A stretch of DNA of 64,000 nt from Candidatus Levyibacteriota bacterium. Lineage in GTDB: Bacteria; Patescibacteriota; Microgenomatia; Levybacterales; UBA12049. The position numbers and the translations under genes are program-made. Shown in pieces: positions 4,751 to 39,005 of the stretch (its first letter is position 1; every line of letters starts with the position of its first letter). The stretch spans positions 309,549 to 373,548 of the forward strand of contig CAVRKE010000001.1 in the NCBI GenBank assembly GCA_963722305.1, given 5' to 3'. The notes beneath the pieces were generated by a model. That model had not been told where the DNA came from and did no database searches. It saw nothing but the letters and a program-made list of their open reading frames with translations.

Positions 4751-5932
4751 ATGAACGATATTGACGAGCTGTTGACGCGAGGAGTCGCAAATATAATCCC
4801 AGGGAAGGATGAGCTTAGAAAACTTCTGGAATTAGGCAAAAAATTAAACGTTTATTTGGGCATTGACCCGACTTCGACCCACATTCATTTGGGTCACGCA
4901 GTGCCTTTACGAAAATTGCAAAAACTGGCCGAACTTGGCCATCATGTTACATTTTTGATTGGAGATTTCACTGCGCTGGTTGGTGACGCATCGGACAAAG
5001 ATTCCGAAAGACCGATTTTAACCTCAGATGAAATCGAAAAGAATTTTCAGACCTACAAAAAACAAGCGGAAAAATTAGTTGATTTTTCAAGAATTGTAAT
5101 CAGAAAAAACAGCGAATGGCTTTCAAAATTAGGCTACAAAGAAATTCTACAGCTGACACAAAAATTTTCCCTGAACGATTTTATCAGCCGTGAGCTAATT
5201 CGAAAAAGGCTTGATGAAGGGAAGAGAGTCAGACTTGACGAAACAAATTATCCGTTAATGCAGGGATACGACAGCTATTTTATGGACACCGATATTCAAG
5301 TTGGAGGAACAGATCAAACTTTTAACATGCAAGCAGGGCGCACGCTGCAGAAAGATTTAAGACAAAAAGAATCTTTTGTCTTAGCCACTGCCTTTTTGGA
5401 AGGAACCGACGGCCGCAAAATGAGTAAAAGTTGGGGAAATGCTATTTGGCTTGATGATGAACCCAATGATATGTACGCCAAAGTAATGGCGGTTGTAGAT
5501 GATTTAATTATTAATTACTTTACTCTTGCAACTAATTTGTCTTTGAAAGAAATAGGGGAGTATGAAAACAAATTAAAGTCCGGTGAAAATCCAATTAACA
5601 TTAAAAAAGAATTAGCACATCAGATTGTCAAGGAATTACATGATGAAAATGCCGCCGATACGGCCGAAAAAGAATTTGAAAAAACCGTTCAGAATAAAGA
5701 AATGCCTGACGAAATAGATCTATTTCCGGTTGGCGACTTTAATCAAACTATTTTCGAAGTCACTTCTGATTGGGCAGGCCTAAGCAATTCTGAACTTAAA
5801 AGATTAATTCAACAGCAAGGCGTAGAAGTAGATGGAAATAAAATTGATATGGAAAGTGCAAATAAAAAAGCGAAGACCGGAATGGTTATCAAAATTGGTC
5901 AAAGAAGAATTGTAAAAATATCATCAAAGTAA
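4751..5932 (+). CDS. tyrS: Tyrosine--tRNA ligase
   Basis: HIGH-type motif (THIHLGHAVPL), KMSKS motif present, C-terminal S4-like domain. Confidence 0.85.
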   Translation: MNDIDELLTRGVANIIPGKDELRKLLELGKKLNVYLGIDPTSTHIHLGHAVPLRKLQKLAELGHHVTFLIGDFTALVGDASDKDSERPILTSDEIEKNFQTYKKQAEKLVDFSRIVIRKNSEWLSKLGYKEILQLTQKFSLNDFISRELIRKRLDEGKRVRLDETNYPLMQGYDSYFMDTDIQVGGTDQTFNMQAGRTLQKDLRQKESFVLATAFLEGTDGRKMSKSWGNAIWLDDEPNDMYAKVMAVVDDLIINYFTLATNLSLKEIGEYENKLKSGENPINIKKELAHQIVKELHDENAADTAEKEFEKTVQNKEMPDEIDLFPVGDFNQTIFEVTSDWAGLSNSELKRLIQQQGVEVDGNKIDMESANKKAKTGMVIKIGQRRIVKISSK

Positions 5933-10452: not shown

Positions 10453-11133
10453 ATGAAGATTTCGATAATTACGCTTTTCCCCGAAATGTTTGAAAGCCCC
10501 TTTGACTCTTCAATTATCAAAAGAGCAATTGATAAAAAACTGATTGAAATTGAATTTATCGATTTGAGAAGTTTCGGCTTGGGGAAACATCAGCTGGTTG
10601 ACGATACGCCATACGGCGGGGGAATGGGCATGATTTTAAGAGTCGACGTTTTAGAAAAAGCCATTGCAGCGGCAAAAGACAAAACTTTAAACTCAAATAA
10701 GCAAAAAGTAGTCCTTTTAAGCGCACACGGGAAAAAGTTTGAGCAGAAAGTTGCCAAAAGTTTTTCCAGGCTCGAACATTTAATCTTGGTTTGCGGTCAT
10801 TACGAGGGATTTGACGAAAGGGTAAAGAATTTTGTTGACGCGGAAATTTCTGTCGGGGATTTTGTTTTAACCGGCGGGGAGATACCGGCAATGTTAATTA
10901 CCGATAGTGTGGCCAGGCTGGTTGAAGGAGTAATTAAAGAAGACTCCGCTAACTTTGAATCCTTTTCGCCTTACCTTGAATATTCGCAATATACTAAACC
11001 GCAGGATTATAAAGGACTAAAGGTTCCAGGAGTACTGCTTTCCGGAAACCACCAGGAAATCGAAAAATGGAAAAAAGAGCAAAGTCTGAAAATTACCGCA
11101 AAGCTTAGACCCGACCTTTTAAAAAAGTCTTAG
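10453..11133 (+). CDS. trmD: tRNA (guanine37-N1)-methyltransferase
   Basis: MKISIITLFPEMF... N-terminus; a SPOUT-fold motif region (GGE...). Confidence 0.85.
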   Translation: MKISIITLFPEMFESPFDSSIIKRAIDKKLIEIEFIDLRSFGLGKHQLVDDTPYGGGMGMILRVDVLEKAIAAAKDKTLNSNKQKVVLLSAHGKKFEQKVAKSFSRLEHLILVCGHYEGFDERVKNFVDAEISVGDFVLTGGEIPAMLITDSVARLVEGVIKEDSANFESFSPYLEYSQYTKPQDYKGLKVPGVLLSGNHQEIEKWKKEQSLKITAKLRPDLLKKS

Positions 11134-11894
11134 AAAGGCGAAGAACCGCTTCTTATCACTGACGCTCCGGACGCCGTGGGAGAAGAAGACAACGCGGTAG
11201 GTATTAGTGGCAGCGCTACCTGAGCTTGGGCATTATTCCAGGAAGAAACAGTTTTTATCAGCGCTAAATCTTTATCGGAAAGAGCAGCTATCGGAAGCGT
11301 GTCATCAACATTTTGTGCAACAAGAGGTTTGTAGTAAAAAAATACCGTAATATCGCCTGCACCACTGTTTATTGTGATATCGGTTACTTCTGAAGCAGGC
11401 GCTGTTTTATAAAGCTCGGTAATAAATTGCATCATCGATTTAAAGTCACCGCTTAAGTTAATATCTATTTTAATCGATGGCGAAGCTGATACCCCGCCCT
11501 GCGTTGCACCAGACAGATTGCCAACGGAAAATTCAAAATCTCCGACCGAAACTCCTGTTTTGGCTGAAGCGTAGGAAATGGCATTGACAATTCCCGCAAA
11601 ATCCTTATCTGAGGGAAGAACAACAGACAAGGTTTTAAGATCTGCATTAGATTGTGAATCATCAAGATTTAGCAAAAAATTATAATTGTTTTTTAATACC
11701 TGCAGTTTTTGTGCCTCATCATTCAACTCTCGCGAAGAGATGAAATATTGCTGAAACTGGGGAATAATAATCAGCAGTAAAATTACAATACTGGCTAGAA
11801 TTATTCCAACAGGCAACAAATAGTCTTTGTAATGCCTGTATAAGGTTAACAAATTATTAAATTCGAAACTAGTTTTTTTGTTTTCAGGTTCCAT
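11130..11894 (-). CDS. Type IV pilus assembly protein, PilO-like
   Basis: Single N-terminal TM, a coiled-coil segment, and a position after pilM-pilN. Confidence 0.5.
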   Translation of the reverse strand: MEPENKKTSFEFNNLLTLYRHYKDYLLPVGIILASIVILLLIIIPQFQQYFISSRELNDEAQKLQVLKNNYNFLLNLDDSQSNADLKTLSVVLPSDKDFAGIVNAISYASAKTGVSVGDFEFSVGNLSGATQGGVSASPSIKIDINLSGDFKSMMQFITELYKTAPASEVTDITINSGAGDITVFFYYKPLVAQNVDDTLPIAALSDKDLALIKTVSSWNNAQAQVALPLIPTALSSSPTASGASVIRSGSSPF

Positions 11895-12435
11895 TTTGTG
11901 CTTTAACTATATCCGCCTCTAGGTGCAATGTGTAACTTCCGCTGGGATCTACAGACAGCCCCTGAATTACAATATTCTTAATTACTTTTCCTTGATTGCC
12001 AAGAGCAACGATGTCGTCAATAAACTTATTTATCGACACCAAAGACAATCCCGAAACGGACATATCCATCTTGCCTGTTACCACCGACAGCTCGCCTACC
12101 GACAAATCGGCCGGAACCTTGCTCAGGACTTGATTTATTTGCGGAATATAATTATCTCTTTGCGAAATTATATTGGAAATGTTGTTTACTCTGTCATTTA
12201 TTGATGCGTAAGTATAGAGCTTATTCTGCAAAAGAGAAAGTCCTGCTTTGGTCATCTGTTCATCCTTTCTGACCGAATCAAAAGGCAGCGTAACGTTTAA
12301 AATAAAAATCATTATTGCGATTAGAGCAACAACAAATAAGCTTATTACAGCTAATACTCTCACTATTCTTAACCGTCTTAATTCCTTTTCCAGTGCAGTA
12401 TTTTTATTGGAAATAAGATTAATATCGCTATTCAT
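11884..12435 (-). CDS. Type IV pilus assembly protein PilN-like
   Basis: Short cytoplasmic N-terminus (INLI...), a single TM, and a periplasmic domain; overlaps pilM and pilO as in pilMNO operons. Confidence 0.6.
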   Translation of the reverse strand: MNSDINLISNKNTALEKELRRLRIVRVLAVISLFVVALIAIMIFILNVTLPFDSVRKDEQMTKAGLSLLQNKLYTYASINDRVNNISNIISQRDNYIPQINQVLSKVPADLSVGELSVVTGKMDMSVSGLSLVSINKFIDDIVALGNQGKVIKNIVIQGLSVDPSGSYTLHLEADIVKAQNGT

Positions 12436-13468
12436 AGTCTTTCATTGCCAGCCCAACCGCAATGGTATAATCTGAGGCATTATCGAGTATGGTCTTGGGC
12501 ATCTGCTGAGACGCCAGCACTTTCCAGGGATTGGCGATGGCAGTTTCCAAACCGGAATTATTGGCAAAAAATATTTCAATTCCCGGAAGTTTAGCCGTAC
12601 CTCCCGATAAAATAATTTGTCTGATCGGGGCATCCTCTTTATATTTTTGTGAGTAGAAGGCAATCGACTTTTTAATTTCTCCCAAAATTGAATTGAGGAT
12701 TGGCTCGGTCGCTTTGCCAATTTTACCCCCTAAACTTTTACCGGAAATTCCGTAAACTCTTTTGTATTCTTCCGCTTGCTGTGGAGTTAAACCAAAGTCC
12801 GTCGCAATCGCCCTGTTTATTGCCGCACCGCCGATAGACATTGAATAGGTAAAAACCATGGCACCGCTTCTGACAATGGCAAAAGAGGTACTGATTGCAC
12901 CAATATTAACCACTAAACTGGTAGGGAAGCTGTCATCCAAAACCAATGACCTGATGGTGGCCAAAATTTCTGTTTCCATGGCGTTGACTTGGAAACCGGC
13001 TAAAGCGATTATTTTCTGGTATTTATTGATGAGCATGGTCGGCGCACCAACCATGAGGACTTGCATCTTATCGCCCTGGGCAACGTTAGCAGGTCTTTTC
13101 AAGACATTCCAGACTAGACTAATATTCGATAAAGGAACAGGAATATATTGTTCCGCTTCCCAGTAAATAGCCGACGCCAACTCTCTGTCCGATAAAACCG
13201 GCATATCCAAAACTTTAGTATAAACCTGATTTTCCGGCAAAGCGACATTTACCAATTTTGTTTCCGCTCCGGAGTCTTTAACCGCTTTGGCAATTGCCTG
13301 AGCCATTTCTTCTTCGTCCAACGGCGATTCCGACATCATCCCTTTTGCAGGCACAGGAGTAATCGAGGCAGCCTTTAACATAAAGGCACCCTTCTTACCG
13401 TCAAGAATAACCAATTTAATTGATGTCGCGCCAATATCGAGACCTAAAGCTTTTTTATTCATCTGCAA
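12428..13468 (-). CDS. pilM: Type IV pilus assembly protein PilM (actin-like ATPase fold)
   Basis: ALGLDIGATSIKLV N-terminus; the length and motifs are typical of PilM. Confidence 0.8.
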   Translation of the reverse strand: MQMNKKALGLDIGATSIKLVILDGKKGAFMLKAASITPVPAKGMMSESPLDEEEMAQAIAKAVKDSGAETKLVNVALPENQVYTKVLDMPVLSDRELASAIYWEAEQYIPVPLSNISLVWNVLKRPANVAQGDKMQVLMVGAPTMLINKYQKIIALAGFQVNAMETEILATIRSLVLDDSFPTSLVVNIGAISTSFAIVRSGAMVFTYSMSIGGAAINRAIATDFGLTPQQAEEYKRVYGISGKSLGGKIGKATEPILNSILGEIKKSIAFYSQKYKEDAPIRQIILSGGTAKLPGIEIFFANNSGLETAIANPWKVLASQQMPKTILDNASDYTIAVGLAMKDYE

Positions 13469-13474
13469 CCTAAA

Positions 13475-14383
13475 CTATGGCGAAAAAACCGTGTAAGGAA
13501 AAAGTTCGGCAGGAATTTGCGGAAAACCTTGAAATGCGGTGACTTTTCTTTGGATGTTGTTATTGTCGGCTGAGCCAACCGAAGAAATATTAGTTCCCTG
13601 ATCGGGAAGGTTCGGATCGGCAGGACCACTTTTTGAAGCGGCAATATACGAATCCGAATAAAGCGGATTAACGCTTACCAATAAGGCATTCGTCAAAGAT
13701 AGCGTTGTCTTAAATACTAGAGTAATCCCGTTGCCGACCGGATACGAGCCCAGACTAACTTTACTGCTGTCAAAACCATTGCCCCTAGCCGAAGCACAAA
13801 AATCCTCAGCGTATCTATCCAGATCGAGCTTATTCGGCGTTACGGTTGTGTCTTTGCTGATTACTGACACTTCAATGGCCGTATCCTTCGTTGCGCTCCC
13901 GCAGCCATCGTTAGAATCTCCCCAATAGATGGTTAAACTACCGGTCCAACTGCTGGCGCTTGTCCAGGAACCGACATCGGAAAAATTACTTACTTTAATA
14001 TCAGCAGGATTATCTTTTGAGACATAGCTTTGCGTATTTCCGGATTGCACTAAAAATGTGGTGCCACCGGAAACTTGAGAAATAGTAGTAGTATATTGAA
14101 TATTCGCATTACTATTTAGAGCGACGTTATTGAAGTTGGTTACGTTCGGGTTTACTCTTGTCATTGCCTGCTGTATGCCCGCTTCCGCCGCCGACAGGGC
14201 TTTTTGTGAGTTTACCTGTTCTTGTGAAGTCTTTAAATTAGTAATCGACCTTGAAGCTACCGATAGACCCACGGTCAACGCCACCACCATCACTAAAACG
14301 ACTATTAACAGCGCTTGGCCGTTTTGCTTTTTGAATATAACCATACCTAATATAGAGTAGCAGTAATTTTTAAGCTTTGTCAA
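13475..14383 (-). CDS. PilX N-terminal domain-like minor pilus protein
   Basis: QNGQALLIVVLVMVVALTVGLSVASRS resembles the PilX_N hydrophobic N-terminal segment; Ser/Thr/Asn-rich extracellular part. Confidence 0.5.
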   Translation of the reverse strand: MTKLKNYCYSILGMVIFKKQNGQALLIVVLVMVVALTVGLSVASRSITNLKTSQEQVNSQKALSAAEAGIQQAMTRVNPNVTNFNNVALNSNANIQYTTTISQVSGGTTFLVQSGNTQSYVSKDNPADIKVSNFSDVGSWTSASSWTGSLTIYWGDSNDGCGSATKDTAIEVSVISKDTTVTPNKLDLDRYAEDFCASARGNGFDSSKVSLGSYPVGNGITLVFKTTLSLTNALLVSVNPLYSDSYIAASKSGPADPNLPDQGTNISSVGSADNNNIQRKVTAFQGFPQIPAELFPYTVFSP

Positions 14384-14387
14384 CTTA

Positions 14388-14993
14388 TTAAAGATTATTT
14401 CTTAAAGTCACCGACGTCTGAAAATTTATCTGCGTTTGCTTCTCTATAACGGGTGTGATGCCCGGAGTAGTCGGTTTAGGGCTCAAGTCAAAGTTTATAT
14501 CAATGGTTGGCGGCATACCAGCGTTCGGCTGTTCGCAGGTAAAATAACAATTCGTCACTGTTGTTGTACTTGTGTTAATTAAATCGATTATCGAGGCGGA
14601 CTGGGAAGCAATCGGGTCTGGGTTTGCCGGATCGCAAATAAAAGTTGTCAGATTCTGATCAAATGATTCGATTCTCAGATAATGATACTGATGGGATCCG
14701 CTGGAAACACAACTTGTCGTATAGGTTGTTGGGTCAGTAAAACTGTCGGTATCGTTTATCCCGACAAAACTTTGTGCATAAGCAATCATTTTTGACATTT
14801 GGGAAATTGCATAATTCCCATTCTGTCTGACATCATTTGTCGACACACTTCTACTGCCACTCCTTAAAGCGGAAACTAAAATCGCAGTGATAATCGTACC
14901 AACCGCAACGAGAATAATCATTACCGCCAACAGCTCAATAAGAGTATAACCTTTATCCTTTTCTTGATTATTGTTTATTGGTTTTTGTCTCAT
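14388..14993 (-). CDS. Prepilin-type N-terminal cleavage/methylation domain protein (minor pilin)
   Basis: Leader ending ...KDKG followed by YTLIELLAVMIIL (class III signal peptide). Confidence 0.7.
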   Translation of the reverse strand: MRQKPINNNQEKDKGYTLIELLAVMIILVAVGTIITAILVSALRSGSRSVSTNDVRQNGNYAISQMSKMIAYAQSFVGINDTDSFTDPTTYTTSCVSSGSHQYHYLRIESFDQNLTTFICDPANPDPIASQSASIIDLINTSTTTVTNCYFTCEQPNAGMPPTIDINFDLSPKPTTPGITPVIEKQTQINFQTSVTLRNNL

Positions 14994-15529
14994 GGTGTCG
15001 GCACTGCATTAACATTGGCAAAACACGAATCAAGAGTGACATTGTGGCAATAATGATTACTGTCTGTAACAAGGGAAGGGCATTTTCCATCAGTCCAAGA
15101 AACCTTAACGGTGGCTTTGACATTCCCGTTGCAGGCAATATTGTCATTCGGTGGAGTCGGTGTTACATAGAGAACTTTCAAAAGAATCACTTCCCTGACA
15201 AAAAAAGGGTTGCCTTTTTCATTGTTGATGTTTTGGTTACAGACAAAATTTGTGGCTTGGGAAAAAGTGTTGCTCTGGTCAAGACACCAATAGCTATTGT
15301 TTGATGCGGAACTTCCGGCTCTTGCGTATAATGTAGTCCATGTTTGCGCTTCTCCTCTTATTATTTCCATTCCTTGCTGGGCGTACTGAGTTGCTAAATT
15401 TTGATATTTACTAAAATCCGCATTATTTACAGCTGAAATTGCCGCCACTGTGATGGCGGAAACGATGACGGCTGCCGCCCCTAAAGCGATTAGCGCTTCC
15501 ACCAAACTTTGTCCTATTTGGTTTTTCAT
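14990..15529 (-). CDS. Pilin-like protein with an atypical N-terminus (G/QSLVEALIAL)
   Basis: Short leader MKNQIG followed by a hydrophobic helix with E at +5; Cys pairs in the C-terminal domain. Confidence 0.5.
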   Translation of the reverse strand: MKNQIGQSLVEALIALGAAAVIVSAITVAAISAVNNADFSKYQNLATQYAQQGMEIIRGEAQTWTTLYARAGSSASNNSYWCLDQSNTFSQATNFVCNQNINNEKGNPFFVREVILLKVLYVTPTPPNDNIACNGNVKATVKVSWTDGKCPSLVTDSNHYCHNVTLDSCFANVNAVPTP

Positions 15530-16068
15530 TGGCTGATATTTCCTCCACTATCAACTGCTATCGTTTTTGTCGGATTCGGTGTGGTAAAAGTGCTATAGAT
15601 TACAATATTACCGCTTCCCACAACTCCACCGGTAAGAACTGGGAAAAACACATCTGTAGTGGTAGTGTTGGTTGAATCGAAATAAACACTTTTGGGCAAT
15701 GTTGTTTGAAAGGTGGTATGGGGCGATTCTGTCCCGGAGCACATAATGTAAAAGTAATAATAATTAGAGCCGGGAGGGGTAACCTCAACAATTTTTATTC
15801 CGTATCCGCCAAACGATTGGCCGACGTTGCAAGCTAAGTTATTTTCCGGATAAACCTTAACCTGTGCACCCGACAAAGATTTTGCCGTATTTAGCGCCGT
15901 TAGCAAGTCATTTTCTGCCTGCTGTAAAGTTTGAGTCTGACTGTAACTAACAAATGACGCCACGCCAATCGTTGAAATTGTCGCAATTATGGAAAAAACA
16001 ACTACCAGCTCAAGTAAGGTAAAACCCTTTGGCTGGCGTAGCAAACGGGCAGAGAAATGGTATTTCAT
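15526..16068 (-). CDS. Prepilin-type pilin (G/FTLLELVVVF)
   Basis: Class III signal peptide with a conserved Glu at +5. Confidence 0.7.
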   Translation of the reverse strand: MKYHFSARLLRQPKGFTLLELVVVFSIIATISTIGVASFVSYSQTQTLQQAENDLLTALNTAKSLSGAQVKVYPENNLACNVGQSFGGYGIKIVEVTPPGSNYYYFYIMCSGTESPHTTFQTTLPKSVYFDSTNTTTTDVFFPVLTGGVVGSGNIVIYSTFTTPNPTKTIAVDSGGNISQ

Positions 16069-16538
16069 GGGTTGGTTACTTTGTAATAATACTTGGTTGA
16101 GCAGCTGGCGGCGCCATTACAAGTACCGTCATTGTTCACGCCCTGGCTATCGGCCGTGTTTTCCAAACAAGCACAGAGTGTATAGGTTGAACCTCCACCG
16201 AAGTAATAATATGCGCCTCCATTATAATTACTGGCCACATTACCGTTTGGGTCACAGGGAATTGTTTGCATATAGACCGTAGTGCCACTACTTAAAGACA
16301 CTCCGCAACCGGCCGGATAATTTGTCCCGCTGGTAGGATATTGCCCATTGTCTGAACGGTAAATTTCCAGAGCCGCCTGAATTTGCCTGATATCCGATTT
16401 TCTTTGCGCATCCCTGGCTCTTTGCCTGACCCCGATAAAGTTGACCATTAAAAGCGTGGCTAAAACTCCGATAATGGCAATGACGATGAGCAATTCGATG
16501 AGCGTAAAACCCTTCACTGAATTTTTAATTTTTTTCAT
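16065..16538 (-). CDS. Type IV pilin / pseudopilin
   Basis: MKKIKNSVKG/FTLIELLIVIAIIGVLA... is canonical; C-terminal Cys. Confidence 0.75.
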   Translation of the reverse strand: MKKIKNSVKGFTLIELLIVIAIIGVLATLLMVNFIGVRQRARDAQRKSDIRQIQAALEIYRSDNGQYPTSGTNYPAGCGVSLSSGTTVYMQTIPCDPNGNVASNYNGGAYYYFGGGSTYTLCACLENTADSQGVNNDGTCNGAASCSTKYYYKVTNP

Positions 16539-17113
16539 GGCGACTGATTTGGGCTACAAATTCCGAAATTACAGACTGTTCCTGATCCGCTGCCACATGT
16601 TGCTCCCGACGGTCGATTGGGACAGGCTGCGCCTTTATTGCAAGTGGCCGGATCACTTCCCCTATCTAGACTAGCATAAAGACAATATCCCTGTCCATTA
16701 GCCGAATAATAAACGTAGGCCTTGGTTGGAGACGCCGGGTCTTTAGGCAATATGTTTATGTATGGTTGCCAGCTTGTTCCCCAGGCCATGTTACAAGGAG
16801 CGGAAGGACATGAGGTGTTATTTAGCGCATTGATAATTAAAAAGTTATTTGTACTGGCCGGATATCGTCCCGCATCTTGGTAGTAAGTTTCTAAAGCTCT
16901 CTGGATTTGAGCCAGGTCGGATTTTCGCCGGCTGTCGTTGGCTTTTTGGAATTGGGCTAAAGGGTCTAAAGCAGCAATAGTAATGGTAGCCATAACGCCT
17001 ATAATTGCCACTACAAGAATCATTTCTATCAAAGTAAAACCTGTCTTAATTTTTATCTTCATCATTATTTTAAGGCTGGCATGGGACAAAACATGTATTA
17101 CCATTTCCGCCAT
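16535..17113 (-). CDS. Type IV pilin; the true start is probably the internal ATG at 17062 (leader MKIKIKTG/FTLIEM)
   Basis: GFTLIEMILVVAIIGVMA motif; a Cys-rich C-terminal domain. Confidence 0.7.
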   Translation of the reverse strand: MAEMVIHVLSHASLKIMMKIKIKTGFTLIEMILVVAIIGVMATITIAALDPLAQFQKANDSRRKSDLAQIQRALETYYQDAGRYPASTNNFLIINALNNTSCPSAPCNMAWGTSWQPYINILPKDPASPTKAYVYYSANGQGYCLYASLDRGSDPATCNKGAACPNRPSGATCGSGSGTVCNFGICSPNQSP

Positions 17114-18023
17114 CTCTTATGCAATATGAACCGTTTCCGGGTCCTTCGTCTTCACAGTAAGTGCCTGGGTTACCGGGAATTTGTGGTGCATATCTTGCAT
17201 CATGGCAATAACAGCCGGGGGGAGTAGGCGTAGGATTACCGCCACCAGCTCCGCCACCTCCGCCAGCACCAGGGCTACCAGTGGGGGTGCCTCCGCCGCC
17301 GCCTGCAGGAGCACCACCTCCACCGCCTGAGGATTCAGACGGACCGGAAGGCACAGGTGTGAAACTTAGAGTGATATTACATTTTACCTCACCGGAGATA
17401 ACACAATAATTATAACCGCTCGGATTATTGCTGGGGAAACAGGATGACGAGCCGGAACCAAGTTGTTTCAAAGGACAGGCAGTTGAGAAATTAGAAGTTT
17501 TTACCACTTTTGCGTAAAGCACGTTCCACTGCGGACAACTTGAATCCACCGTATCCGGCTCATAGGCATAATTGGCCGAGCCGCCGAGCGACGGATCGCC
17601 GGGCACCTTTTCCATATAAACCGTGCCGTTGCTGCCTACCCAGGCAGTTCCGCTGTCCGGAAGGCTTTGCGGATAACAACCGGTATCGTTGTAATAAGTA
17701 TCAAGAGCGGTTTGCAACTGTTTTAAGTCCTGTCCACGCTGTGCATCCTCGCCTTTTTGGATTTGGGCTACCGGATTTAACGCGATAAGTATCACCGTTG
17801 TTAATATCCCCAGAATGATAAGCGTCACTAACAGCTCAATGAGGGTAAAACCAAACGGCGATTGAAAATTGAAAATTGAAAATTGAAAATTGTTTTTTAG
17901 CCGCCTAACAAACGAAGTACTTGGGAATAAATTAAATTTCCCCAAAAAAGACTGATGACGGCGCCCAAAACTAAGAATGGGCCAAAAGGAAGAGTGGCAT
18001 TTCTGAAACTTTTTTTCTTCCAT
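17070..18023 (-). CDS. Large pilin-like protein with a Gly-rich low-complexity linker and a Cys-rich C-terminal domain; start uncertain
   Basis: G/FTLIELLVTLIIL at residues 58-70; the ORF from the ATG at 18023 overlaps the pilD 3' end by 126 nt and contains the (ATTGAAA)4 tract; no canonical start codon between the pilD stop and the cleavage site. Confidence 0.6.
   Translation of the reverse strand: MEEKKFQKCHSSFWPILSFGRRHQSFLGKFNLFPSTSFVRRLKNNFQFSIFNFQSPFGFTLIELLVTLIILGILTTVILIALNPVAQIQKGEDAQRGQDLKQLQTALDTYYNDTGCYPQSLPDSGTAWVGSNGTVYMEKVPGDPSLGGSANYAYEPDTVDSSCPQWNVLYAKVVKTSNFSTACPLKQLGSGSSSCFPSNNPSGYNYCVISGEVKCNITLSFTPVPSGPSESSGGGGGAPAGGGGGTPTGSPGAGGGGGAGGGNPTPTPPGCYCHDARYAPQIPGNPGTYCEDEGPGNGSYCIRDGGNGNTCFVPCQP
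17861..17892. repeat. Heptanucleotide tandem repeat (ATTGAAA)x4 plus a partial unit, in the pilD-pilin junction/leader
   Basis: Units at 17861-17867, 17868-17874, 17875-17881 and 17882-17888, then ATTG; the unit length is not a multiple of 3. Confidence 0.9.
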
Positions 18024-18712
18024 ATAATTAGTATGATACCCATTAGTGCTCCTGTCAAGAAAGCCAAGTACAGGCTAACAATTATCTTCGGAAAGCCTAA
18101 GAAAAGTCCTAATAAAAAGGCCAGTTTGATGTCTCCGCCGCCCATTGCTTGTTTTTTAGTCAGGAGAGAAAATACCAGCGAAATAATCACAAAGAACAAA
18201 AATGCGCCAATTCCGGAAAGAAGATTAATGATTAAAGATTGTTGATTAAAGAATAAAAGATAACCTAGGGTAACTATCGCGGCGGGGAAGAGGATTTTGT
18301 CCGGAATAATGCCTGATTTTAGGTCGGTGAAAAAAATGACGATAAAGGATGAAATTACCAAAAGATAGTAAAATAAAGTGATTAATGATAATGGATTAAT
18401 GATTAATGAACTAAAATCTGTAATCTGTAATCTGTAATCTGTAATCATCAAGTAAGTCAGCGCAAACATTATTCCTGTTGTAATCTCTATTGTTGGATAA
18501 AAAAGTGGCAGTTGATGTTTGCAATACCGGCACCTGCCTCTTAATAAAACGAAGGAAAGTAGGGGAAGCAGGTCATACCAGCGAAGATTTTTTTGGCAAA
18601 ATTCACAATGCGAGTGGCCTTTAACCACCGTTTCGTTCCGCGGAATTCGGTCAGTTAGAACCCCCAAAAAAGAACCGACAAATAATCCTATCAGCAGCAA
18701 AAATAAAATCAT
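17897..18712 (-). CDS. pilD: Prepilin peptidase (A24 family)
   Basis: N-terminal CxxC...CxxC zinc-binding motif; multiple TM segments; GGGD(IK) catalytic region. Confidence 0.85.
   Translation of the reverse strand: MILFLLLIGLFVGSFLGVLTDRIPRNETVVKGHSHCEFCQKNLRWYDLLPLLSFVLLRGRCRYCKHQLPLFYPTIEITTGIMFALTYLMITDYRLQITDFSSLIINPLSLITLFYYLLVISSFIVIFFTDLKSGIIPDKILFPAAIVTLGYLLFFNQQSLIINLLSGIGAFLFFVIISLVFSLLTKKQAMGGGDIKLAFLLGLFLGFPKIIVSLYLAFLTGALMGIILIIWKKKSFRNATLPFGPFLVLGAVISLFWGNLIYSQVLRLLGG
18418..18445. repeat. Heptanucleotide tandem repeat (CTGTAAT)x4 inside the pilD coding sequence (encodes ITDYRLQITDF)
   Basis: Four perfect 7-nt units at 18418-18445; adjacent ATTAATG near-repeats at 18381-18408. 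Confidence 0.9.
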
Positions 18713-18746
18713 TAAATTAAGTATAGCAAATTAGTCACGTGGAAGA

Positions 18747-19325
18747 TTAGGAGTGTGTCGATGTACACCAGAAGCACCCGTCGCCGTTGTGACCTGCGCT
18801 GGAAGGTACTCCATTAGTAAACACGCAAAGATGTGTTGTCCCAGCAGTACCGTCTGATTTAAGCAATGCTATTTTTTGCTGGGATTTTGACTGAGGCTGG
18901 AAACAGGCAATGACATCGTTATTTACTGCATCATAAGTGACATAAATGTCCTGCAAATCATTTTTATCCTGTGCAAACGCCTGTTTCAACTCGTTTTCAG
19001 CAGTCAATGCGGTTACGCACGTTGCCATGCCTGGTGCTGGATCTAAAAGATTGACCGCTCCAGTGGGTGGAGTTCCACCATTGCAGCTAGCTCCGTTAGT
19101 ATCCCACGGAAAAGCATTGTGAGTAGCGTAATACCTTAATAAGGCATCGTTGAATTCAACTGCAGTATTTTTAGTGTTGGAATCGGCGGCTTTTTTAATT
19201 TGTTCAAACGGATCAATCGTGGCGACTAAGGCGGCGGCTAAAACTCCGAGGATACCGATGACGACCAACAGTTCAATCAGGGTAAAACCGCTGTTTTTCT
19301 TGAATAACTTAAGAAAACTTCTCAT
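18747..19325 (-). CDS. Type IV pilin (major pilin candidate)
   Basis: MRSFLKLFKKNSG/FTLIELLVVIGILGVLAAA; located between pilC and pilD; two Cys pairs. Confidence 0.75.
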   Translation of the reverse strand: MRSFLKLFKKNSGFTLIELLVVIGILGVLAAALVATIDPFEQIKKAADSNTKNTAVEFNDALLRYYATHNAFPWDTNGASCNGGTPPTGAVNLLDPAPGMATCVTALTAENELKQAFAQDKNDLQDIYVTYDAVNNDVIACFQPQSKSQQKIALLKSDGTAGTTHLCVFTNGVPSSAGHNGDGCFWCTSTHS

Positions 19326-19380
19326 CTATATATTAATATTACTCACATCCGAAAAAGTTTGTCAAGCCCCCAGTTTAAAG

Positions 19381-20583
19381 CTATTGGATACTGGAAATAA
19401 GGCTGTAAATCGGCGTAATTATTGAAATAATTAAAAAAGCCACGCCAATTCCCAGGACCACCATAATAAACGGTTCCATTGCCGTGGTTAAGCCCTTGAC
19501 TGTTTCGTCAACCTCCCTTTCGAAATATTCCGATGCCTTGTTTAGTGTCTCGTCAATTTTACCTGTCTGTTCGCCGATTTTTACCAGTTGAACCAGAAGA
19601 GAAGGAAAAAGCGGATTATAACTCATCGCATCACCGATAGTGACGCCTTTTTCAACCTGGCTGGAAACAGCCGTAATTGCATTTTTGTAATTAAGGTTTC
19701 CGGTTGTATCCGAAGTTTCCAAAAGCGCTTGCACGACCAGCGTTCCGGTTCCGACCAACAAACCGAAAGTTCTGGAAAACTCCGCCAAAATAGTCTTGCT
19801 GATTAAGTTGCCAAAAACCGGCAGCTTTAAAATAAAGGTGTCTAAAATTAATCTCCCGTCGGGGGTGTGTGACCACTTGCGAAAACCGAAAAATCCCAGC
19901 ACTACGGCAATTAAGACAATCGGCCAAAAAGTTACCATTGCGCTTGATATACCGATGACAATTTGTGTCGGCAAAGGGAGGGGAACATTTAAATTTTGAT
20001 AGAGTATGGACAGCTGGGGCATCACATAAACCATCATAATCATCATCACTACCACCATCAAAATAACTACTATCACCGGATACATTAGCGCCGACCTAAT
20101 GGTGCTTTTTAATTTTTCCTGTTTTTCCAGGTTATCCGCCAACCTGGCTAAAACCTTGTCCAAAAGGCCCGATTGTTCTCCCGCTTTAATAATTGAAATA
20201 TAAATCGGCGAAAAAACTTTTGGATGTTTCTCGATTGCCTGGGCCAAGGTTTTACCTTCCTCTACGTCATTAATGATGGTGGTTACAATCTCTGCCATAT
20301 GCGCATTCGGCATCTGGTCTTTTAAAATATCCAGAGCGCGCATTAAGGTCAAGCCCGAAGCAAGCATCGAGGAAAGTTGCCTGGTAAAAAGCACCAAATC
20401 GGAATTTTTGACGCTGTTAAACATCGGCAGATAATTCCAAAATTGATTATCAATTCTGGTAATCTGAATGGGGGTTAATTGCTTTGCCCGTAAATAATTT
20501 GCCGCCTCGTCAATATCTTTAGCATCTAAAAGACCTTGGGATAATTTTCCTTCTTTGGTTGCAGCTTTATATCTTAGTCTCAT
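19381..20583 (-). CDS. pilC: Type IV pilus assembly platform protein PilC (GspF family)
   Basis: About 400 aa with two GspF-type repeats and 3 TM segments. Confidence 0.85.
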   Translation of the reverse strand: MRLRYKAATKEGKLSQGLLDAKDIDEAANYLRAKQLTPIQITRIDNQFWNYLPMFNSVKNSDLVLFTRQLSSMLASGLTLMRALDILKDQMPNAHMAEIVTTIINDVEEGKTLAQAIEKHPKVFSPIYISIIKAGEQSGLLDKVLARLADNLEKQEKLKSTIRSALMYPVIVVILMVVVMMIMMVYVMPQLSILYQNLNVPLPLPTQIVIGISSAMVTFWPIVLIAVVLGFFGFRKWSHTPDGRLILDTFILKLPVFGNLISKTILAEFSRTFGLLVGTGTLVVQALLETSDTTGNLNYKNAITAVSSQVEKGVTIGDAMSYNPLFPSLLVQLVKIGEQTGKIDETLNKASEYFEREVDETVKGLTTAMEPFIMVVLGIGVAFLIISIITPIYSLISSIQ

Positions 20584-20659
20584 ATTTACTAATTTCGTTT
20601 GCTACTTTCGGATTTTATTCCTCAGTCCCTCAACCTACGGTCTCGGGATCTCACTTCGT

Positions 20660-21727
20660 TCAACCCACCATTCTTAACAGTTCTTCGGGTCTTAAGGAAT
20701 AACTTTTTGCCGTCTCAAGACTAACTGTTCCGGAGAGAACCAAAGAAGCCAAAGATGATTCAAGCGTTATCATTCCCGCGTCCTGTGAAGTTTGGATGAC
20801 CGAATCAATCAAGTGCGTTTTTCCTTCCCTGATGTTACTGGCAATAGCCGAAGTGCCAATTAATACCTCCACTCCGGGAATTCTTCCTCCGTTTATCTGC
20901 GGAATTAATCTTTGCGCAATTACTCCTTTTAAAGTCGACGACAGCTGAATCCTAATTTGGTCTTGCTGGGAAGCCGGAAATGAATCAATAATCCTGTCGA
21001 TGGTTTGCGCCGCCGAGTTGGTATGTAGAGTTGAAAACACCAAGTGGCCGGTTTCGGCAATCGTAATCGCCGCCGCAATCGTTTCCGGATCACGCATTTC
21101 TCCAACCAGTACCACATCCGGGTCTTCCCTGAGTGCACTGCGAAGCGCTAGCGCCCAAGAATGAGTGTCCAAGTCCATCTCCCTTTGCGAGATAATACTT
21201 TTGCCGGTGGAATAAACATATTCAATCGGGTCCTCAATCGTCAAAATGTGCACTGCCCGGCTTAAGTTAATCTCGTTTAGCATTGCCGCCAGAGTAGTGG
21301 ATTTTCCATGGCCGGTCGGTCCGGTCACCAACACAAATCCCTGTTTAAGCGTGGTAAAACTATGACAAATTTTCGGAAGATGCAATTCTTCTATGGTCCT
21401 AATGTTTGGTTGTAAAAAGCGGAAGGCGGCGCTTAAAACGCCTCGTTGGTAATACAGGTTCGTTCTGAACCTTCCCAAATCGCCATAAGCCCCTCCGCCA
21501 AATCCAAACGAGAAATCAATTTCTTTATTATTGATTAAAAGCTCTTTTTGTTCGGGTTTTAAGATGGAAAAAATCATCATTTCCAACTCCTGGGGAGTAA
21601 TTACTTGGTAGCTCGATAGATATCTTAGCGCTCCGTCTATCCTGATTGCCGGAGGAATTCCCGGCAAAAGGTGCAAATCCGAAGCGTTATTTTTAATTGT
21701 TAAGTCTAATAACTCATGTATTTCCAT
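20660..21727 (-). CDS. pilT: Twitching motility/retraction ATPase PilT
   Basis: Walker A GPTGHGKST; Asp box; His box (STLHTNSAAQTIDRI); 355 aa. Confidence 0.8.
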   Translation of the reverse strand: MEIHELLDLTIKNNASDLHLLPGIPPAIRIDGALRYLSSYQVITPQELEMMIFSILKPEQKELLINNKEIDFSFGFGGGAYGDLGRFRTNLYYQRGVLSAAFRFLQPNIRTIEELHLPKICHSFTTLKQGFVLVTGPTGHGKSTTLAAMLNEINLSRAVHILTIEDPIEYVYSTGKSIISQREMDLDTHSWALALRSALREDPDVVLVGEMRDPETIAAAITIAETGHLVFSTLHTNSAAQTIDRIIDSFPASQQDQIRIQLSSTLKGVIAQRLIPQINGGRIPGVEVLIGTSAIASNIREGKTHLIDSVIQTSQDAGMITLESSLASLVLSGTVSLETAKSYSLRPEELLRMVG

Positions 21728-21796
21728 AATCCTAGTTTATTAGTCACTAGTTGAGCAGTTACTAGTATCTAGTATCTAACCAACTAATAACTAGTC

Positions 21797-23545
21797 TTAT
21801 TCTTGTGCCACCCTTAGTACTTCTTCAACCGTCGTTACTCCTTGCAAAACCTTGAGGTAACCATCCTGTTTCATGGTGATCATTCCCTCCAATATCGCCT
21901 CTTTTTCAATTGTACCACTATCCGCTCGCTGCAAAACAAGACTGGCAACTTTTTCCGAAACAGGCAGGGTTTCGAAAATTCCTATCCTGCCAAAATAGCC
22001 GGAGTTGCCACATTCCGCGCAGCCTTTTCCTCGATAAAACTTCACTGTTGCATCCGGCTTTTCCGGCGGAAAATATTTACCAAGCACTATCTTCATTTCC
22101 GCCACAATCTGGGCAGGCGGGACATATTCGGCCCGGCAACTGTTGCAAACTTTTCTGACAATTCTTTGTCCTAGCACCGCATTCATGGTTGAAGCGAGCA
22201 AGAATGATTCCGCTCCTAAATCTAAAAGTCTGGGGAGCGCTCCGGCAGCATTTGAAGTGTGCAGAGTAGAGAAGACCAAATGGCCGGTTAAAGCCGCTTG
22301 AATGGCCAATTCGGTGGTTTCGTTGTCACGAATTTCGCCAACCAGAATGATATTGGGGTCCTGTCTTAAAAACGCCCTTAAACCATCCGCAAAAGTTAAG
22401 CCGACTGCCGGATTTATCTGTACCTGGTTGATGCCGGCCATCTGATACTCAATCGGGTCCTCAAGCGTCATAATGTTGACACGCGTGGTATTCAGTTTGG
22501 AAAGAACCGAATAAAGAGTCGTCGTTTTTCCACTCCCTGTTGGTCCAACGACAATAATAATGCCGTGCGGCCGAAGCATCGCCGTTTCCAAATTTCGCAG
22601 TGACGCACCGTTAAGCCCCAACTCCTGAAGTGTCGGGACTCCGCCGGATTTACGCAGGAGTCTCATCACGATTTTTTCTCCGAAAGATGTCGGCAAGACC
22701 GAAATACGCAGGTCAACCTCTTTATCTTCGACTTTAAAATTAAAACGACCATCCTGCGGAGTACGGTGTTCGTCAATTTTCATTTCGGAAAGGATTTTAA
22801 TTCTTGAGATAACCGCCTCCTGGACGCTTTTGGGCAAAGACAACCGGTCATATAAAATTCCGTCAATCCTGTACCTGACCCTAACCCGGTCTTCCTGCGG
22901 CTCAATGTGGATATCCGAAGCACGTGAGGTAACGGCGTACTCCAGAATGGTCGAAACGATTTTGGCAATCGGCGCCTCTTTGATAATCTGGGCGATTTGG
23001 GTGGTGTCGACTGTTTTTACTTTTCCGGCTTCTTCCGTTTCTTTTAAAGCCGCGCCGACTTCTCCGACAATTTCCTGCCGGTACTGCTGGTTAATGGCAT
23101 TTTCCACATCGGTGGGGGAGGAGGCGAAGGTTTTGATGTTTAACCCGGTCTTTTCCCGGACAAAAGTCACTGCTTCTAGGTCTACCGGATTACTCATGGC
23201 TACCGACAGCGTCTGGGTTTTTTCGTCAAAAGCAAAAGGAATTAGCGAAAATCTTTCGGCGACCGCCCTGGGCACATAGCCGACAGCCTGCGGTGAAAAT
23301 GAAGAGGTATCCAGCGTCATAAAAGGGATGCCGAGCAGTTTGGCTTTTTCTTCGGAAAGTTTATCGGGAGTAATAATGTTTAAGGATTCGATAATCGTTT
23401 CTTCGGAAACGCCTTTGCTGGCGCTTTTTACTTTGACATCGTCGTATTGGGTTTTGGTAATCTGCTTATCTGCCAGAAGAATATCCGCCAAAGTTTGGTT
23501 TCCTCCAGTAGTTTGAGATGACAGGTTCTGTGAATCGTCGGGCAT
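21797..23545 (-). CDS. pilB: Type IV pilus assembly ATPase PilB (GspE family)
   Basis: GspE N-terminal domain; Walker A GPTGSGKTTT; C-terminal tetra-Cys (CNSCRAEY...CAECGNSGY). Confidence 0.85.
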   Translation of the reverse strand: MPDDSQNLSSQTTGGNQTLADILLADKQITKTQYDDVKVKSASKGVSEETIIESLNIITPDKLSEEKAKLLGIPFMTLDTSSFSPQAVGYVPRAVAERFSLIPFAFDEKTQTLSVAMSNPVDLEAVTFVREKTGLNIKTFASSPTDVENAINQQYRQEIVGEVGAALKETEEAGKVKTVDTTQIAQIIKEAPIAKIVSTILEYAVTSRASDIHIEPQEDRVRVRYRIDGILYDRLSLPKSVQEAVISRIKILSEMKIDEHRTPQDGRFNFKVEDKEVDLRISVLPTSFGEKIVMRLLRKSGGVPTLQELGLNGASLRNLETAMLRPHGIIIVVGPTGSGKTTTLYSVLSKLNTTRVNIMTLEDPIEYQMAGINQVQINPAVGLTFADGLRAFLRQDPNIILVGEIRDNETTELAIQAALTGHLVFSTLHTSNAAGALPRLLDLGAESFLLASTMNAVLGQRIVRKVCNSCRAEYVPPAQIVAEMKIVLGKYFPPEKPDATVKFYRGKGCAECGNSGYFGRIGIFETLPVSEKVASLVLQRADSGTIEKEAILEGMITMKQDGYLKVLQGVTTVEEVLRVAQE

Positions 23546-23554
23546 TACTATTAT

Positions 23555-23590
23555 AGTAATTGTTTTTGCGTTATAATGTCAACAATAATG
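23555..23590 (-). promoter_or_regulatory. Sigma70-like promoter for pilB (TTGACA-18-TACTAT), near-leaderless
   Basis: Minus-strand reading ...TTGACATTATAACGCAAAAACAATTACTATAATAGTA-ATG. Confidence 0.4.
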
Positions 23591-23747
23591 TTTCAAAATA
23601 GAGCTCATAATTACGCGAATTTAATTGACCTAGAATTATTGAAATTAGAAATGGGAAGTTGAAAATTGAATCCTTGAAATCTGGAATTCTAGAAATCGAA
23701 AAATCAAAATCCAGAAAATCCAACTTCCGATATCAAGAAATCAAAAT

Positions 23748-24413
23748 ATGACACAAAGCGTTTTAATTGTCGGGGAAAAAGAAAAAGCCAGGGAGAAAGC
23801 CTTAAACATTGCCCGGGAAAATTCAATTTCCCGGTTCGACATTGAAATAATCGAAACGGAAAAAGCGGTCGGGATAGGGGACATTCGACGTTTGCAGAAA
23901 AAGATTTGGCTCAAGCCGATTAAAAGTGAAATAAAAGCGGTAATTTTGGAAGCGTTTTATGAGATGACGGTGGAAAGCCAGAATGCCTTCCTGAAAATGT
24001 TGGAAGAACCGCCTGCCAATACAATTGTGATAATTCTTGTTTCCTCTTTGGATTTTTTACTTCCGACAGTCCTCTCCAGATGCAATTTAATTAACCTTAA
24101 TCAGCTCAAGAATCTTTCAGACGAAGATATGGAAAGTAACCTGAGATTAATTCTTGACCTTAAAAACCAAGGACACGCAAACGCATTAGTGCTGACCCAA
24201 AAGAATTCAAAAGATAAAGAAACCGCCTTGCAATTTTTAGAGAATTTAATAGTGGCCGCACACCAGGCCTTAGAAAGTAATACCGCTGAATTCTCGACTG
24301 AGGATTTGCGAAAAATTCTAAAGAATTTACAGGCAACTTATACGCTGATTAAATCAACCAACGTCAATGTCCGCTTTGCCCTGGAGAATTTATTTTTGAA
24401 CTTCCTTATTTAA
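23748..24413 (+). CDS. holB: DNA polymerase III delta-prime-like subunit
   Basis: AAA+-like fold with ...AFLKMLEEPP...TIVIIL...LSRCNLINL (SRC motif) typical of HolB. Confidence 0.7.
   Translation: MTQSVLIVGEKEKAREKALNIARENSISRFDIEIIETEKAVGIGDIRRLQKKIWLKPIKSEIKAVILEAFYEMTVESQNAFLKMLEEPPANTIVIILVSSLDFLLPTVLSRCNLINLNQLKNLSDEDMESNLRLILDLKNQGHANALVLTQKNSKDKETALQFLENLIVAAHQALESNTAEFSTEDLRKILKNLQATYTLIKSTNVNVRFALENLFLNFLI
24365..24403 (+). repeat. Direct repeat, copy A (the holB 3' end); the partner is at 25886-25924
   Basis: 39 nt, 36/39 identical: CAATGTCCGCtTTGCccTGGAGAATTTATTTTTGAACTT. Confidence 0.85.
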
Positions 24414-38913: not shown

Positions 38914-39005
38914 TTTTTAATTTAAAATTTTAAATTTTTAATCAAATCCTAATGCTTTAATCATTCATTAGAAATTAAGAATTAGAAATTAGAAATTTTA
39001 TTGTT

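Follow-up and report, generated by a model that had tools for sequence, protein, structure and literature searches.

In bacteria of the Candidate Phyla Radiation (CPR), both host contact and the uptake of DNA are believed to depend on type IV pili. Type IVa pilins carry leaders of 5–7 amino acids (aa), type IVb and other long-leader pilins carry leaders of about 15–30 aa, and both leaderless mRNAs and promoters embedded in upstream coding sequence are common in Actinobacteria and Deinococcus. Here we evaluate a prepilin gene, the prepilin peptidase gene pilD that it overlaps, and a heptamer repeat tract in the leader-coding region of the former, all on a 64-kb stretch (hereafter "the window") of a Candidatus Levyibacteriota genome (contig CAVRKE010000001.1, positions 309,549 to 373,548). 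Among described repeats of this period, the heptanucleotide tract of neuO ranges from 3 to 53 units, with 65.6% of 64 genomes in the OFF state (PMC13001214). More broadly, heptamer repeats are over-represented in many bacteria, which has been attributed to polymerase slippage or footprint (PMC4692102), and the TAACTGA heptamer repeats of Beggiatoaceae abut start codons and have been proposed as translational signals (PMC4679880). Our literature search on heptamer repeats, phase variation or leaderless genes in CPR bacteria or Patescibacteria returned nothing specific; for CPR bacteria, neither the proposed embedded promoter with its gene overlap nor a clustering of heptamer tracts in pilin leaders seems to have been described.

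Results

A prepilin gene that overlaps pilD

The features on which the argument depends are as follows (window positions, minus strand throughout).

17897–18712, minus strand: pilD, prepilin peptidase, 271 aa (Pfam A24_N_bact, 4e-30; Peptidase_A24, 2e-16)
18053–18058, minus strand: putative −35 hexamer TTGACA in pilD codons F218-L219-T220, with synonymous sites frozen across 55 pilD genes
18030–18035, minus strand: −10-like hexamer CATACT, separated by a 17-nt spacer from the −35 and lying 6 nt before the ATG
18021–18023, minus strand: pilin ATG, formed from pilD codons ATA TGG; proposed +1 of a leaderless mRNA
17070–18023, minus strand: prepilin open reading frame (ORF), 317 aa, with a 58-aa leader and then the mature part from FTLIELLV
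17861–17892, minus strand: perfect heptamer tract, (CAATTTT)x4.57 on the coding strand, translated as NFQFSIFNFQ in the prepilin leader
17850–17852, minus strand: Gly(−1) codon GGT, followed by the Phe(+1) codon at 17847–17849; prepilin peptidase cleavage falls between them

From these features and the comparisons below, we consider it probable that the tract is a slippage-born, in-frame microsatellite in a tolerant leader, behind a leaderless start at ATG 18023, and that it produces occasional null mutants rather than acting as a regular switch. The pilin would be translated from ATG 18023, with which a leaderless mRNA would begin; the sigma-70-type promoter of this mRNA (TTGACA, 17 nt, CATACT, 6 nt, ATG) would sit near the 3' end of pilD, within its coding region. 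The first ~42 leader codons would be pilD sequence read in the −1 frame, and the leader would serve as a mere spacer, later removed by PilD at G/FTLIE. Inside this dispensable leader a slipped-strand microsatellite would have grown by three units (21 nt, 7 codons), a change that keeps the frame and leaves the gene ON; a slip of one unit would yield a null allele, and we see no sign of regular use as a switch. The window tract would then be one of a Levyibacteriota-wide set of ~21–35-nt heptamer tracts that arise repeatedly in prepilin leaders and PilD loops, at sites presumed to tolerate insertions and to be seeded by A/T-rich proto-repeats. We infer both the slippage origin and the absence of switching.

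The genes belong to a pilus cluster (11130–23545) comprising pilB, pilT, pilC, a pilin, pilD, seven pilin-like genes and pilM. The 317-aa ORF has the features of a type IV prepilin, namely G(−1), F(+1) and E(+5) around a cleavage site G/FTLIE at residues 58/59 (SPFG/FTLIELLVTLIILGILTTVILIAL), a hydrophobic helix directly after it, and a prepilin peptidase encoded in the same cluster. Its Pfam N_methyl score (20.9 bits) lies slightly under the 21.2 cut-off, and most homologues have PF07963. The one departure is the leader, which at 58 aa (34–58 aa in relatives) is not the short basic leader (~5–30 aa) of type IV prepilins.

An initial annotation of this sequence had placed a heptamer tract between pilD and the pilin cleavage motif, and both Tandem Repeats Finder (TRF; period 7, 4.6 copies, 100% matches) and an exact scan of the window (periods 4–12, at least 3 perfect copies) bear this out. 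The 44 nt from the pilD TAA to the Gly(−1) codon consist of AAAA, the 32-nt tract and CGCCGTTT, such that the tract ends 8 nt before that codon. Just two perfect tandem repeats were found in the window, this one and a (GATTACA)x4.57 tract, each of 32 nt, and 100 composition-preserving shuffles of the window gave no perfect repeat of period 6 or more.

The interval between the pilD stop and the motif was also said to hold no in-frame ATG, GTG or TTG, and we found none in those 44 nt. The first in-frame ATG, at 18023, precedes the final base of the pilD stop codon by 127 nt and gives the 58-aa leader. Over these last 127 nt of pilD the pilin ORF is read in the −1 frame, and they encode the first 42 leader residues. 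The claim that 18023 is the only ATG available holds, at a distance of 127 nt; it had overlooked an in-frame TTG within pilD that is also a possible start, with a leader of 32 aa.

The start codon inside pilD is conserved where the pilin needs it

We gathered 128 related loci plus the closest relative, L129 (handles of this form denote individual loci); in 68 of them pilD lies directly upstream of a pilin with a recognizable cleavage motif. These loci are phylogenetically non-independent, and the statistics treat genomes as independent. Pilin homologues occur in Candidatus Levyibacteriota and other Patescibacteria, and many begin with MEEKK...SSFW...FLGKFN, which is the extension that overlaps pilD. 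In nearly all of the 68 loci the pilin is read in the −1 frame with respect to pilD, and in 20 of them the cleavage motif lies within pilD itself (gap −22 to −1), so that the start must be inside pilD and not after its stop. Re-initiation after the pilD stop is rejected on these grounds, since in those 20 relatives the motif precedes the stop.

Among non-redundant loci, the site aligned with 18023 is ATG in 36 and GTG in 2. Every locus without a nearer ATG has a start codon at this site (32/32), and every locus without a start codon at this site has a nearer ATG (13/13; Fisher p = 6e-8). Likewise, the frame from this site to the motif is open in 38/38 loci with the start codon versus 4/13 without (p = 2e-7). 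Where the pilin can do without this ATG, the PilD Trp codon (TGG) that donates its TG is replaced by codons for G, A, S, L, E or F, and it is thus the ATG that constrains PilD rather than PilD the ATG. Two earlier suggestions fare less well against these data: the tract was thought to link this ATG to an otherwise ATG-less pilin, and relatives without a tract use the same conserved ATG; an ATT/ATC start was offered as an alternative, and the covariation of the conserved ATG with the lack of a nearer one disfavors it.

Frozen synonymous sites resemble an embedded promoter

We built a codon alignment of 55 non-redundant Levyibacteriota pilD genes, and a short run of codons upstream of the pilin ATG proved nearly fixed in synonymous usage.

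F218: TTC in 49/55; elsewhere Phe is mostly TTT
L219: TTG in 49/49; other Leu columns have relative entropy 0.75–0.98
T220: ACA in 50/51; other Thr columns have relative entropy of about 0.93–0.96
I227: ATA in 49/50; elsewhere Ile is mostly ATT
L228: CTN in all; TTA and TTG are common in other Leu columns

As a nucleotide consensus, TTCTTGACAGG-N14-TCATACT is found in 49/55 pilD genes, and in the remaining six the next pilins have their own 4–17-aa leaders, some in another frame. As the frozen region precedes the ATG and is not translated as pilin, it is the nucleotide sequence itself that is constrained. Downstream of the pilin ATG, in the same alignment, pilD synonymous sites are unconstrained. 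Selection on the leader peptide sequence is rejected on this basis; the leader is apparently unselected and seems to need just an open frame.

The frozen sites look like a promoter within pilD that would give a leaderless pilin mRNA. In a promoter consensus scan TTGACA/CATACT gave 10/12 matches; a gap of 6 nt separates CATACT from the ATG, so transcription would be expected to begin (+1) at the A of that codon. A geometry scan (−35 with at most 1 mismatch, 16–18 nt, xAxxxT, 5–7 nt, ATG, ORF of at least 80 codons) found two sites in the whole window, this pilin and pilB, against 0.0 in shuffles. The latter, at the first gene of the pilus cluster, is arranged as follows.

23543–23582, minus strand: pilB start with leaderless geometry (TTGACA 23582–23577, 18-nt spacer, TACTAT 23558–23553, 7 nt, ATG 23545)

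In the related loci the same geometry, with a gap that is nearly always 6 nt, occurs at 40 pilD-internal ATGs and at 35 other genuine gene starts, including those of other pilins, PilC, PilX-like proteins and large (~715-aa) membrane proteins. The −35/−10 placement expected of leaderless genes is therefore found at this pilin and, as the same mode, at other genes. With 35 other gene starts sharing the geometry, leaderless initiation appears to be a normal expression mode in the Levyibacteriota lineage, and leaderless mRNAs may be a major one in the phylum. Across L001–L130, many of these Levyibacteriota gene starts have the form TTGACA, 17–18 nt, TAnnnT, 6 nt, ATG. RNA folding of 17830–18040 predicted no structure (z = 0.22), and an Rfam search of the window matched only a tRNA elsewhere and nothing at the tract.

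The tract probably arose by in-frame expansion of the leader

The distance from the pilD stop to the Gly codon forms a series among relatives, with values of 11 nt (L050, L068, L066, L052, L078, L053), 23 nt (L049, whose pilD is the nearest to the window's among the metagenome-scan loci) and 44 nt (the window, L054, L057, L060). The window gap exceeds that of tract-less L049 by 21 nt, which is three units or 7 codons, and exceeds the 11-nt state by 33 nt. L060 and L057 retain the 58-aa leader with decayed heptamers, while L054 shows a 14-nt period. The closest relative, L129 (pilin identity 64%), has a 14-nt gap and no tract.

A parallel case is the minor pilin two genes downstream.

16509–16538, minus strand: minor-pilin leader MKKIKNSVKG with the proto-repeat AAAATTA AAAATTC, the unexpanded state

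This basal 10-aa leader is shared by the window, L051, L056, L058, L003 and L061, and a leader of 16–17 aa (~+21 nt) is found in most of L110, L059, L037, L028, L042, L094, L014, L070, L054 and L050. The expanded leaders hold perfect or decaying tracts of differing units (AAAATTC, AAATATC, AATCAAA, AATTTCA, AATTGGA and others), and all orthologous minor-pilin leaders are in frame (29/29). L059 and L052 have flanks 97% and 90% identical, with unrelated tracts of 33 and 30 nt; because near-identical flanks carry unrelated tracts, the site turns over faster than its surroundings. These comparative data show the tract site to be a candidate slippage hot spot.

In L010, tandem paralogous pilins (4921–4942 and 5523–5544) have identical leaders that include (CATTATT)x3.1, with flanks 100% and 95% identical, which points to recent duplication or gene conversion of leader and tract.

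Heptamer tracts are a lineage-wide class

A census of perfect tandem repeats (at least 3 copies) over 753 kb of loci gave 45 tracts of period 7, 1 of period 8 and none of periods 5 or 9–12. Twenty perfect heptamer tracts lie at most 150 nt upstream of a prepilin cleavage motif, where 3.3 are expected (binomial p = 9e-12). Thirteen of the tracts end 2–10 nt before the Gly codon, with a mode at 8 nt (6 cases, including the window). Two further leader tracts, in L122 and L053, were missed owing to a contig end or an ATG within the unit. Roughly 11 perfect tracts fall in two variable PilD loops, those of L066, L068 and L002 having the very unit of the window pilin tract and reading NFQFSIF, and the remaining tracts are intergenic, often beside start codons. 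Overall there are more than 25 distinct units, ~31 of the 45 tracts lie in coding sequence, and 44/45 have 3–5 units, which is short next to neuO or hmw1A. Lengths peak at 32–35 nt, as expected from one founder unit plus three added under frame constraint.

The window holds further members of this class in its pilus genes.

18415–18446, minus strand: second perfect tract, (GATTACA)x4.57, which PilD translates in frame within one of its variable loops
18379–18409, minus strand: degenerate heptamer tract, CATTAAT-like, 4.4 copies, in the PilD loop shared with the GATTACA tract
18223–18249, minus strand: degenerate heptamer tract in a second PilD loop, a site where L002 and L025 have perfect tracts
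14960–14988, minus strand: degenerate array of heptamers where a further pilin (ORF 14388–14993) encodes its leader

The PilD loop with the GATTACA and degenerate CATTAAT tracts is 14 aa (42 nt, 6 units) longer than that of L129. The 64-kb window is the only sequence in the analysis that was not selected for pilus loci. Pilus genes make up 19% of it and contain both of its perfect tracts, with none elsewhere; if degenerate arrays are counted, the split is 5 versus 4. Among the degenerate arrays outside pilus genes, some precede gyrA and the H+-pyrophosphatase gene and one is contained in the gene for a pseudouridine synthase; the presumed slippage process is therefore not limited to the pilus cluster.

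Several such arrays deserve description. On the plus strand at 38911–38997, two degenerate arrays (TAATTTT-like; ATTAGAA x4.4) fill the H+-pyrophosphatase–gyrA gap, the latter stopping 9 nt short of the gyrA start codon (ATG, 39007). Inside the pseudouridine synthase (PF00849) ORF (54615–55358, minus strand), a degenerate GATACTT x5 array with 82% matches occupies 54898–54932. Upstream of the pilB promoter (23590–23750, minus strand) lies a degenerate array of 7–8-nt period (GATTTTC, GATTTTT, CGATTTC, AATTTTC etc.), which includes the pilin tract unit CAATTTTCAA and which TRF did not report. Among the related loci, L032 (4992–5024, ATGAAGC) and L053 (1420–1446, GAATTAT+G) have ATG-containing units just upstream of a pilin or secreted-protein ORF; these provide starts in all three frames at 7-nt spacing, and slippage would leave the frame of the last ATG unchanged. 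In L041/L120, an AAAATCA x3.1 tract (3613–3634) directly precedes a small ORF of GIY-YIG type (MFYVYLLRS...YIGSTKDLKRR) that is inserted beside the pilin locus.

Is the tract a phase-variation switch?

The tract was originally put forward as a possible substrate for slipped-strand phase variation. Developed as a contingency locus, this holds that frequent slips between 4 units (ON) and 3 or 5 units (OFF) switch the first gene of the pilin operon, and maybe downstream genes via polarity, and that the GATTACA tract does likewise for PilD, so that an episymbiotic CPR bacterium would phase-vary its type IV pili; across the phylum, tracts in prepilin leaders and PilD loops would form a contingency system that switches individual pilins, or the pilus as a whole via PilD, acting on a pilin operon whose promoter, embedded in pilD, yields a leaderless mRNA. 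We regard this as unlikely, both for the locus and for the phylum, though with evidence on its side that has to be weighed.

The sequence logic is sound. In silico, tracts of 2, 3, 5 or 6 units yield products of 57–69 aa (62–64-aa stubs at 3 or 5 units), versus 317 aa at 4 units and 324 aa at 7, so the prediction that gain or loss of one 7-nt unit breaks the pilin frame was right. A perfect non-triplet tract is present inside the 5' coding part of a surface-structure gene, in a layout like that of opa CTCTT (PMC3745409) and the neuO heptanucleotide (PMC13001214). Prepilin leaders are strongly enriched in tracts, both perfect tracts of the window fall in pilD or the pilin, and tract turnover outpaces the flanks. 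Finally, expansion from 2 to 5 units via single-unit slips needs two frameshifted intermediates, which the repeated +3-unit expansions must have crossed.

The variation itself, by contrast, was not found. Contingency loci have unit numbers that vary between related genomes and OFF alleles that are common, and neither was seen here: all translated tracts are in frame with the upstream ATG (19/19; p ~1e-9 if one third of alleles were ON), as are the 29/29 orthologous leaders, and OFF alleles make up 65.6% for neuO. The 3–5 units seen here are likewise few against the 3–53 of neuO. Unit numbers do not differ in the near-identical contig pairs L098/L103, L041/L120 and L127/L128, nor do tracts differ between genome pairs at least 98.7% identical, and at 78–88% identity the differences are presence, absence or replacement of a tract, each time by a multiple of 3 nt. 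L130, assembled independently from a different sample, encodes an identical 317-aa pilin with 4 units in both tracts; the almost identical pilin–pilD segment indicates that it represents the same population as the window. A scan of metagenome contigs with exact flanks for 1–5-unit alleles gave 0 matches. In addition, L060 and L057 hold the same leader length despite decayed tracts, and heptamer arrays also occur in intergenic DNA and housekeeping contexts. Phase variation therefore stands as mechanically possible, with the tests for variation negative; counting units, which had been named as a check on reads or strains, showed no difference in near-identical contig pairs or in a second assembly.

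Alternative readings: starts nearer the cleavage site, cis elements and artefacts

A second alternative keeps the pilin and moves its start nearer the cleavage site, either to the TTG in pilD (32-aa leader, LGKFN...) or to an ATT/ATC near the tract (~9-aa leader), leaving ATG 18023 as a by-product of PilD coding. A TTG does stand at the FLGKFN position in many relatives, some family members have short leaders, and A/T-rich heptamer arrays lie immediately upstream of starts at gyrA, L100 and L029, comparable to the TAACTGA repeats (PMC4679880). We nevertheless judge it very improbable: 11 loci (L001, L002, L014, L004, L104, L010, L037, L022, L103, L062, L061) have no GTG or TTG between the ATG and the motif, the 20 loci with the motif inside pilD make a post-stop start impossible there, the conserved ATG covaries perfectly with the lack of a nearer one, and the promoter geometry puts the +1 on that ATG.

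Still less credible is that the tract acts in cis, as RNA or DNA, by offering a periodic binding site to a translational or transcriptional regulator. Its lengths cluster at 32–35 nt and its position is constant in 6 cases, including the window, at 8 nt before the Gly codon, and the TAACTGA heptamer repeats offer a precedent hypothesis (PMC4679880). However, units differ between genomes, even at orthologous sites, and so share nothing that a regulator could recognize; one founder unit plus three that keep the frame accounts for the length mode; and neither a predicted RNA structure (z = 0.22) nor an Rfam match was obtained.

Highly implausible, too, is an artefact or pseudogene, in which an assembly indel near the tract or pilin decay removed the true start, or a PilD–pilin fusion by −1 frameshifting on the A-run (AAG AAA AAA AG). 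In its favor, the window gyrA is broken by at least 3 frameshifts, L130 is visibly noisy, the pilin is read in the −1 frame of pilD and the ATG is followed by a run of seven A. Against it, the 317-codon ORF is intact and identical in the second assembly, and its leader length and frame equal those of L054, L057 and L060. Programmed −1 frameshifting is rejected since the A-run, read in the pilD frame, does not fit the canonical X XXY YYZ pattern, and since relatives conserve the ATG but not the A-run.

Annotation and assembly quality

In the source record the annotated pilin (P0001, 252 aa) begins at a GTG beyond its cleavage site, six other family members are annotated from inside the mature protein, and in L129 (3321–4001) pilD was not called at all; automated gene calling cannot handle the 127-nt pilD–pilin overlap. 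As a gene product P0001 was found on no contig, and the cluster look-up gave P0067 and L130.

In the window gyrA (39007–41488, plus strand) is split into at least 4 ORFs, with frameshifts near 39300, 40330 and 40940 (e.g., an extra G at ~39311), and the window is probably assembled from long reads with residual indel errors. L130 (ENA ERZ25039473 contig_140987) shows mosaic identity to window positions 16912–24091: the pilin–pilD–pilin segment (16912–19349) has 5 mismatches, whereas pilC, pilT and pilB are ~8–10% different. This mosaic reflects either a chimeric assembly or pilin-cassette recombination between strains.

Discussion

Several points weigh against a slippage-born tract in a tolerant leader behind a leaderless start. 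On the side of the tract, leader density is ~7x that of intergenic DNA in these loci, and the purity of tracts with species-specific units implies continuing slippage; simple tolerance does not fully explain these two observations, which leaves room for selection on switching. As for the start, we infer promoter activity, the transcription start and the use of ATG 18023 from conservation and geometry only. The −10 element is weak (4/6 matches), the consensus is sigma-70-type and may not be that of CPR bacteria, and the frozen pilD bases could be an RNA-level signal instead of a promoter. To our knowledge, a 58-aa class III leader exceeds that of any described type IV pilin. The non-independence of the related loci makes our p-values optimistic, and the gyrA frameshifts are probably assembly indel errors, so that other window frames may be unreliable; a second assembly and the relatives nevertheless support the ORF, frame and leader length of the pilin.

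The conserved embedded promoter and leaderless ATG, as we interpret them, correct the annotation of a whole CPR pilin family, and common leaderless initiation in Levyibacteriota would matter for gene prediction in uncultured genomes. They also suggest how a compact genome can fit a strong promoter into an upstream gene at the price of a long unselected leader peptide, which the class III signal tolerates because PilD removes it. The concentration of tracts in pilin leaders and PilD loops raises a testable hypothesis: the tracts could subject the pili to on/off variation, or they may simply record a strong heptamer-slippage bias filtered by selection. If the phylum-wide contingency system were true, unlikely as we hold it to be, it would be the first repeat-based phase variation described in CPR bacteria, joined to an unusual conserved 127-nt out-of-frame overlap made by an embedded promoter.

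Comparison with known systems

As in known leaderless genes, a putative −35/−10 pair here would set the +1 at the A of an ATG, with no Shine-Dalgarno sequence and a strong preference for ATG. The difference is that the putative promoter lies wholly inside the upstream gene, that the ORF runs 127 nt out of frame with it, which yields a prepilin leader of 40–58 aa, and that the arrangement is conserved across a CPR phylum. Like type IVb pilins, the product has a G(−1)/F(+1)...E(+5) class III signal for processing by PilD and a leader longer than 5–7 aa; unlike them, its leader is 34–58 aa across the family and mostly an unselected by-product of pilD coding.

Neisseria opa CTCTT (PMC3745409) shares with this locus a non-triplet repeat in the part of the gene that encodes a cleaved leader, where unit number sets the frame of the mature protein. 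The opa tracts are longer, switch at ~1e-3 per generation and exist in many OFF copies, whereas here there are 4–5 units, none of the 19 (or 29) compared leaders is OFF, unit numbers agree between assemblies, and the leader is a class III leader and not a Sec signal peptide. The AAGACTC repeat of E. coli K1 neuO (PMC13001214) likewise has a 7-nt unit in the 5' coding region, with every third unit number giving a full-length product, but its 3–53 units and 65.6% OFF among 64 genomes contrast with Levyibacteriota tracts of 3–5 units that are all ON. Comparable in repeat character are cyanobacterial STRR, Xanthomonas/Nostoc GGGNATC and Beggiatoaceae TAACTGA (PMC4692102, PMC4679880), which show the same period-7 excess in short 2–6-copy arrays, often beside starts, and for which polymerase-footprint slippage is a proposed source. 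Those families have one or a few fixed units and are mostly intergenic; in the Levyibacteriota loci, compared with STRR and TAACTGA, units vary from site to site, and roughly two in three tracts fall in prepilin leaders or PilD loops, where they are translated in frame.

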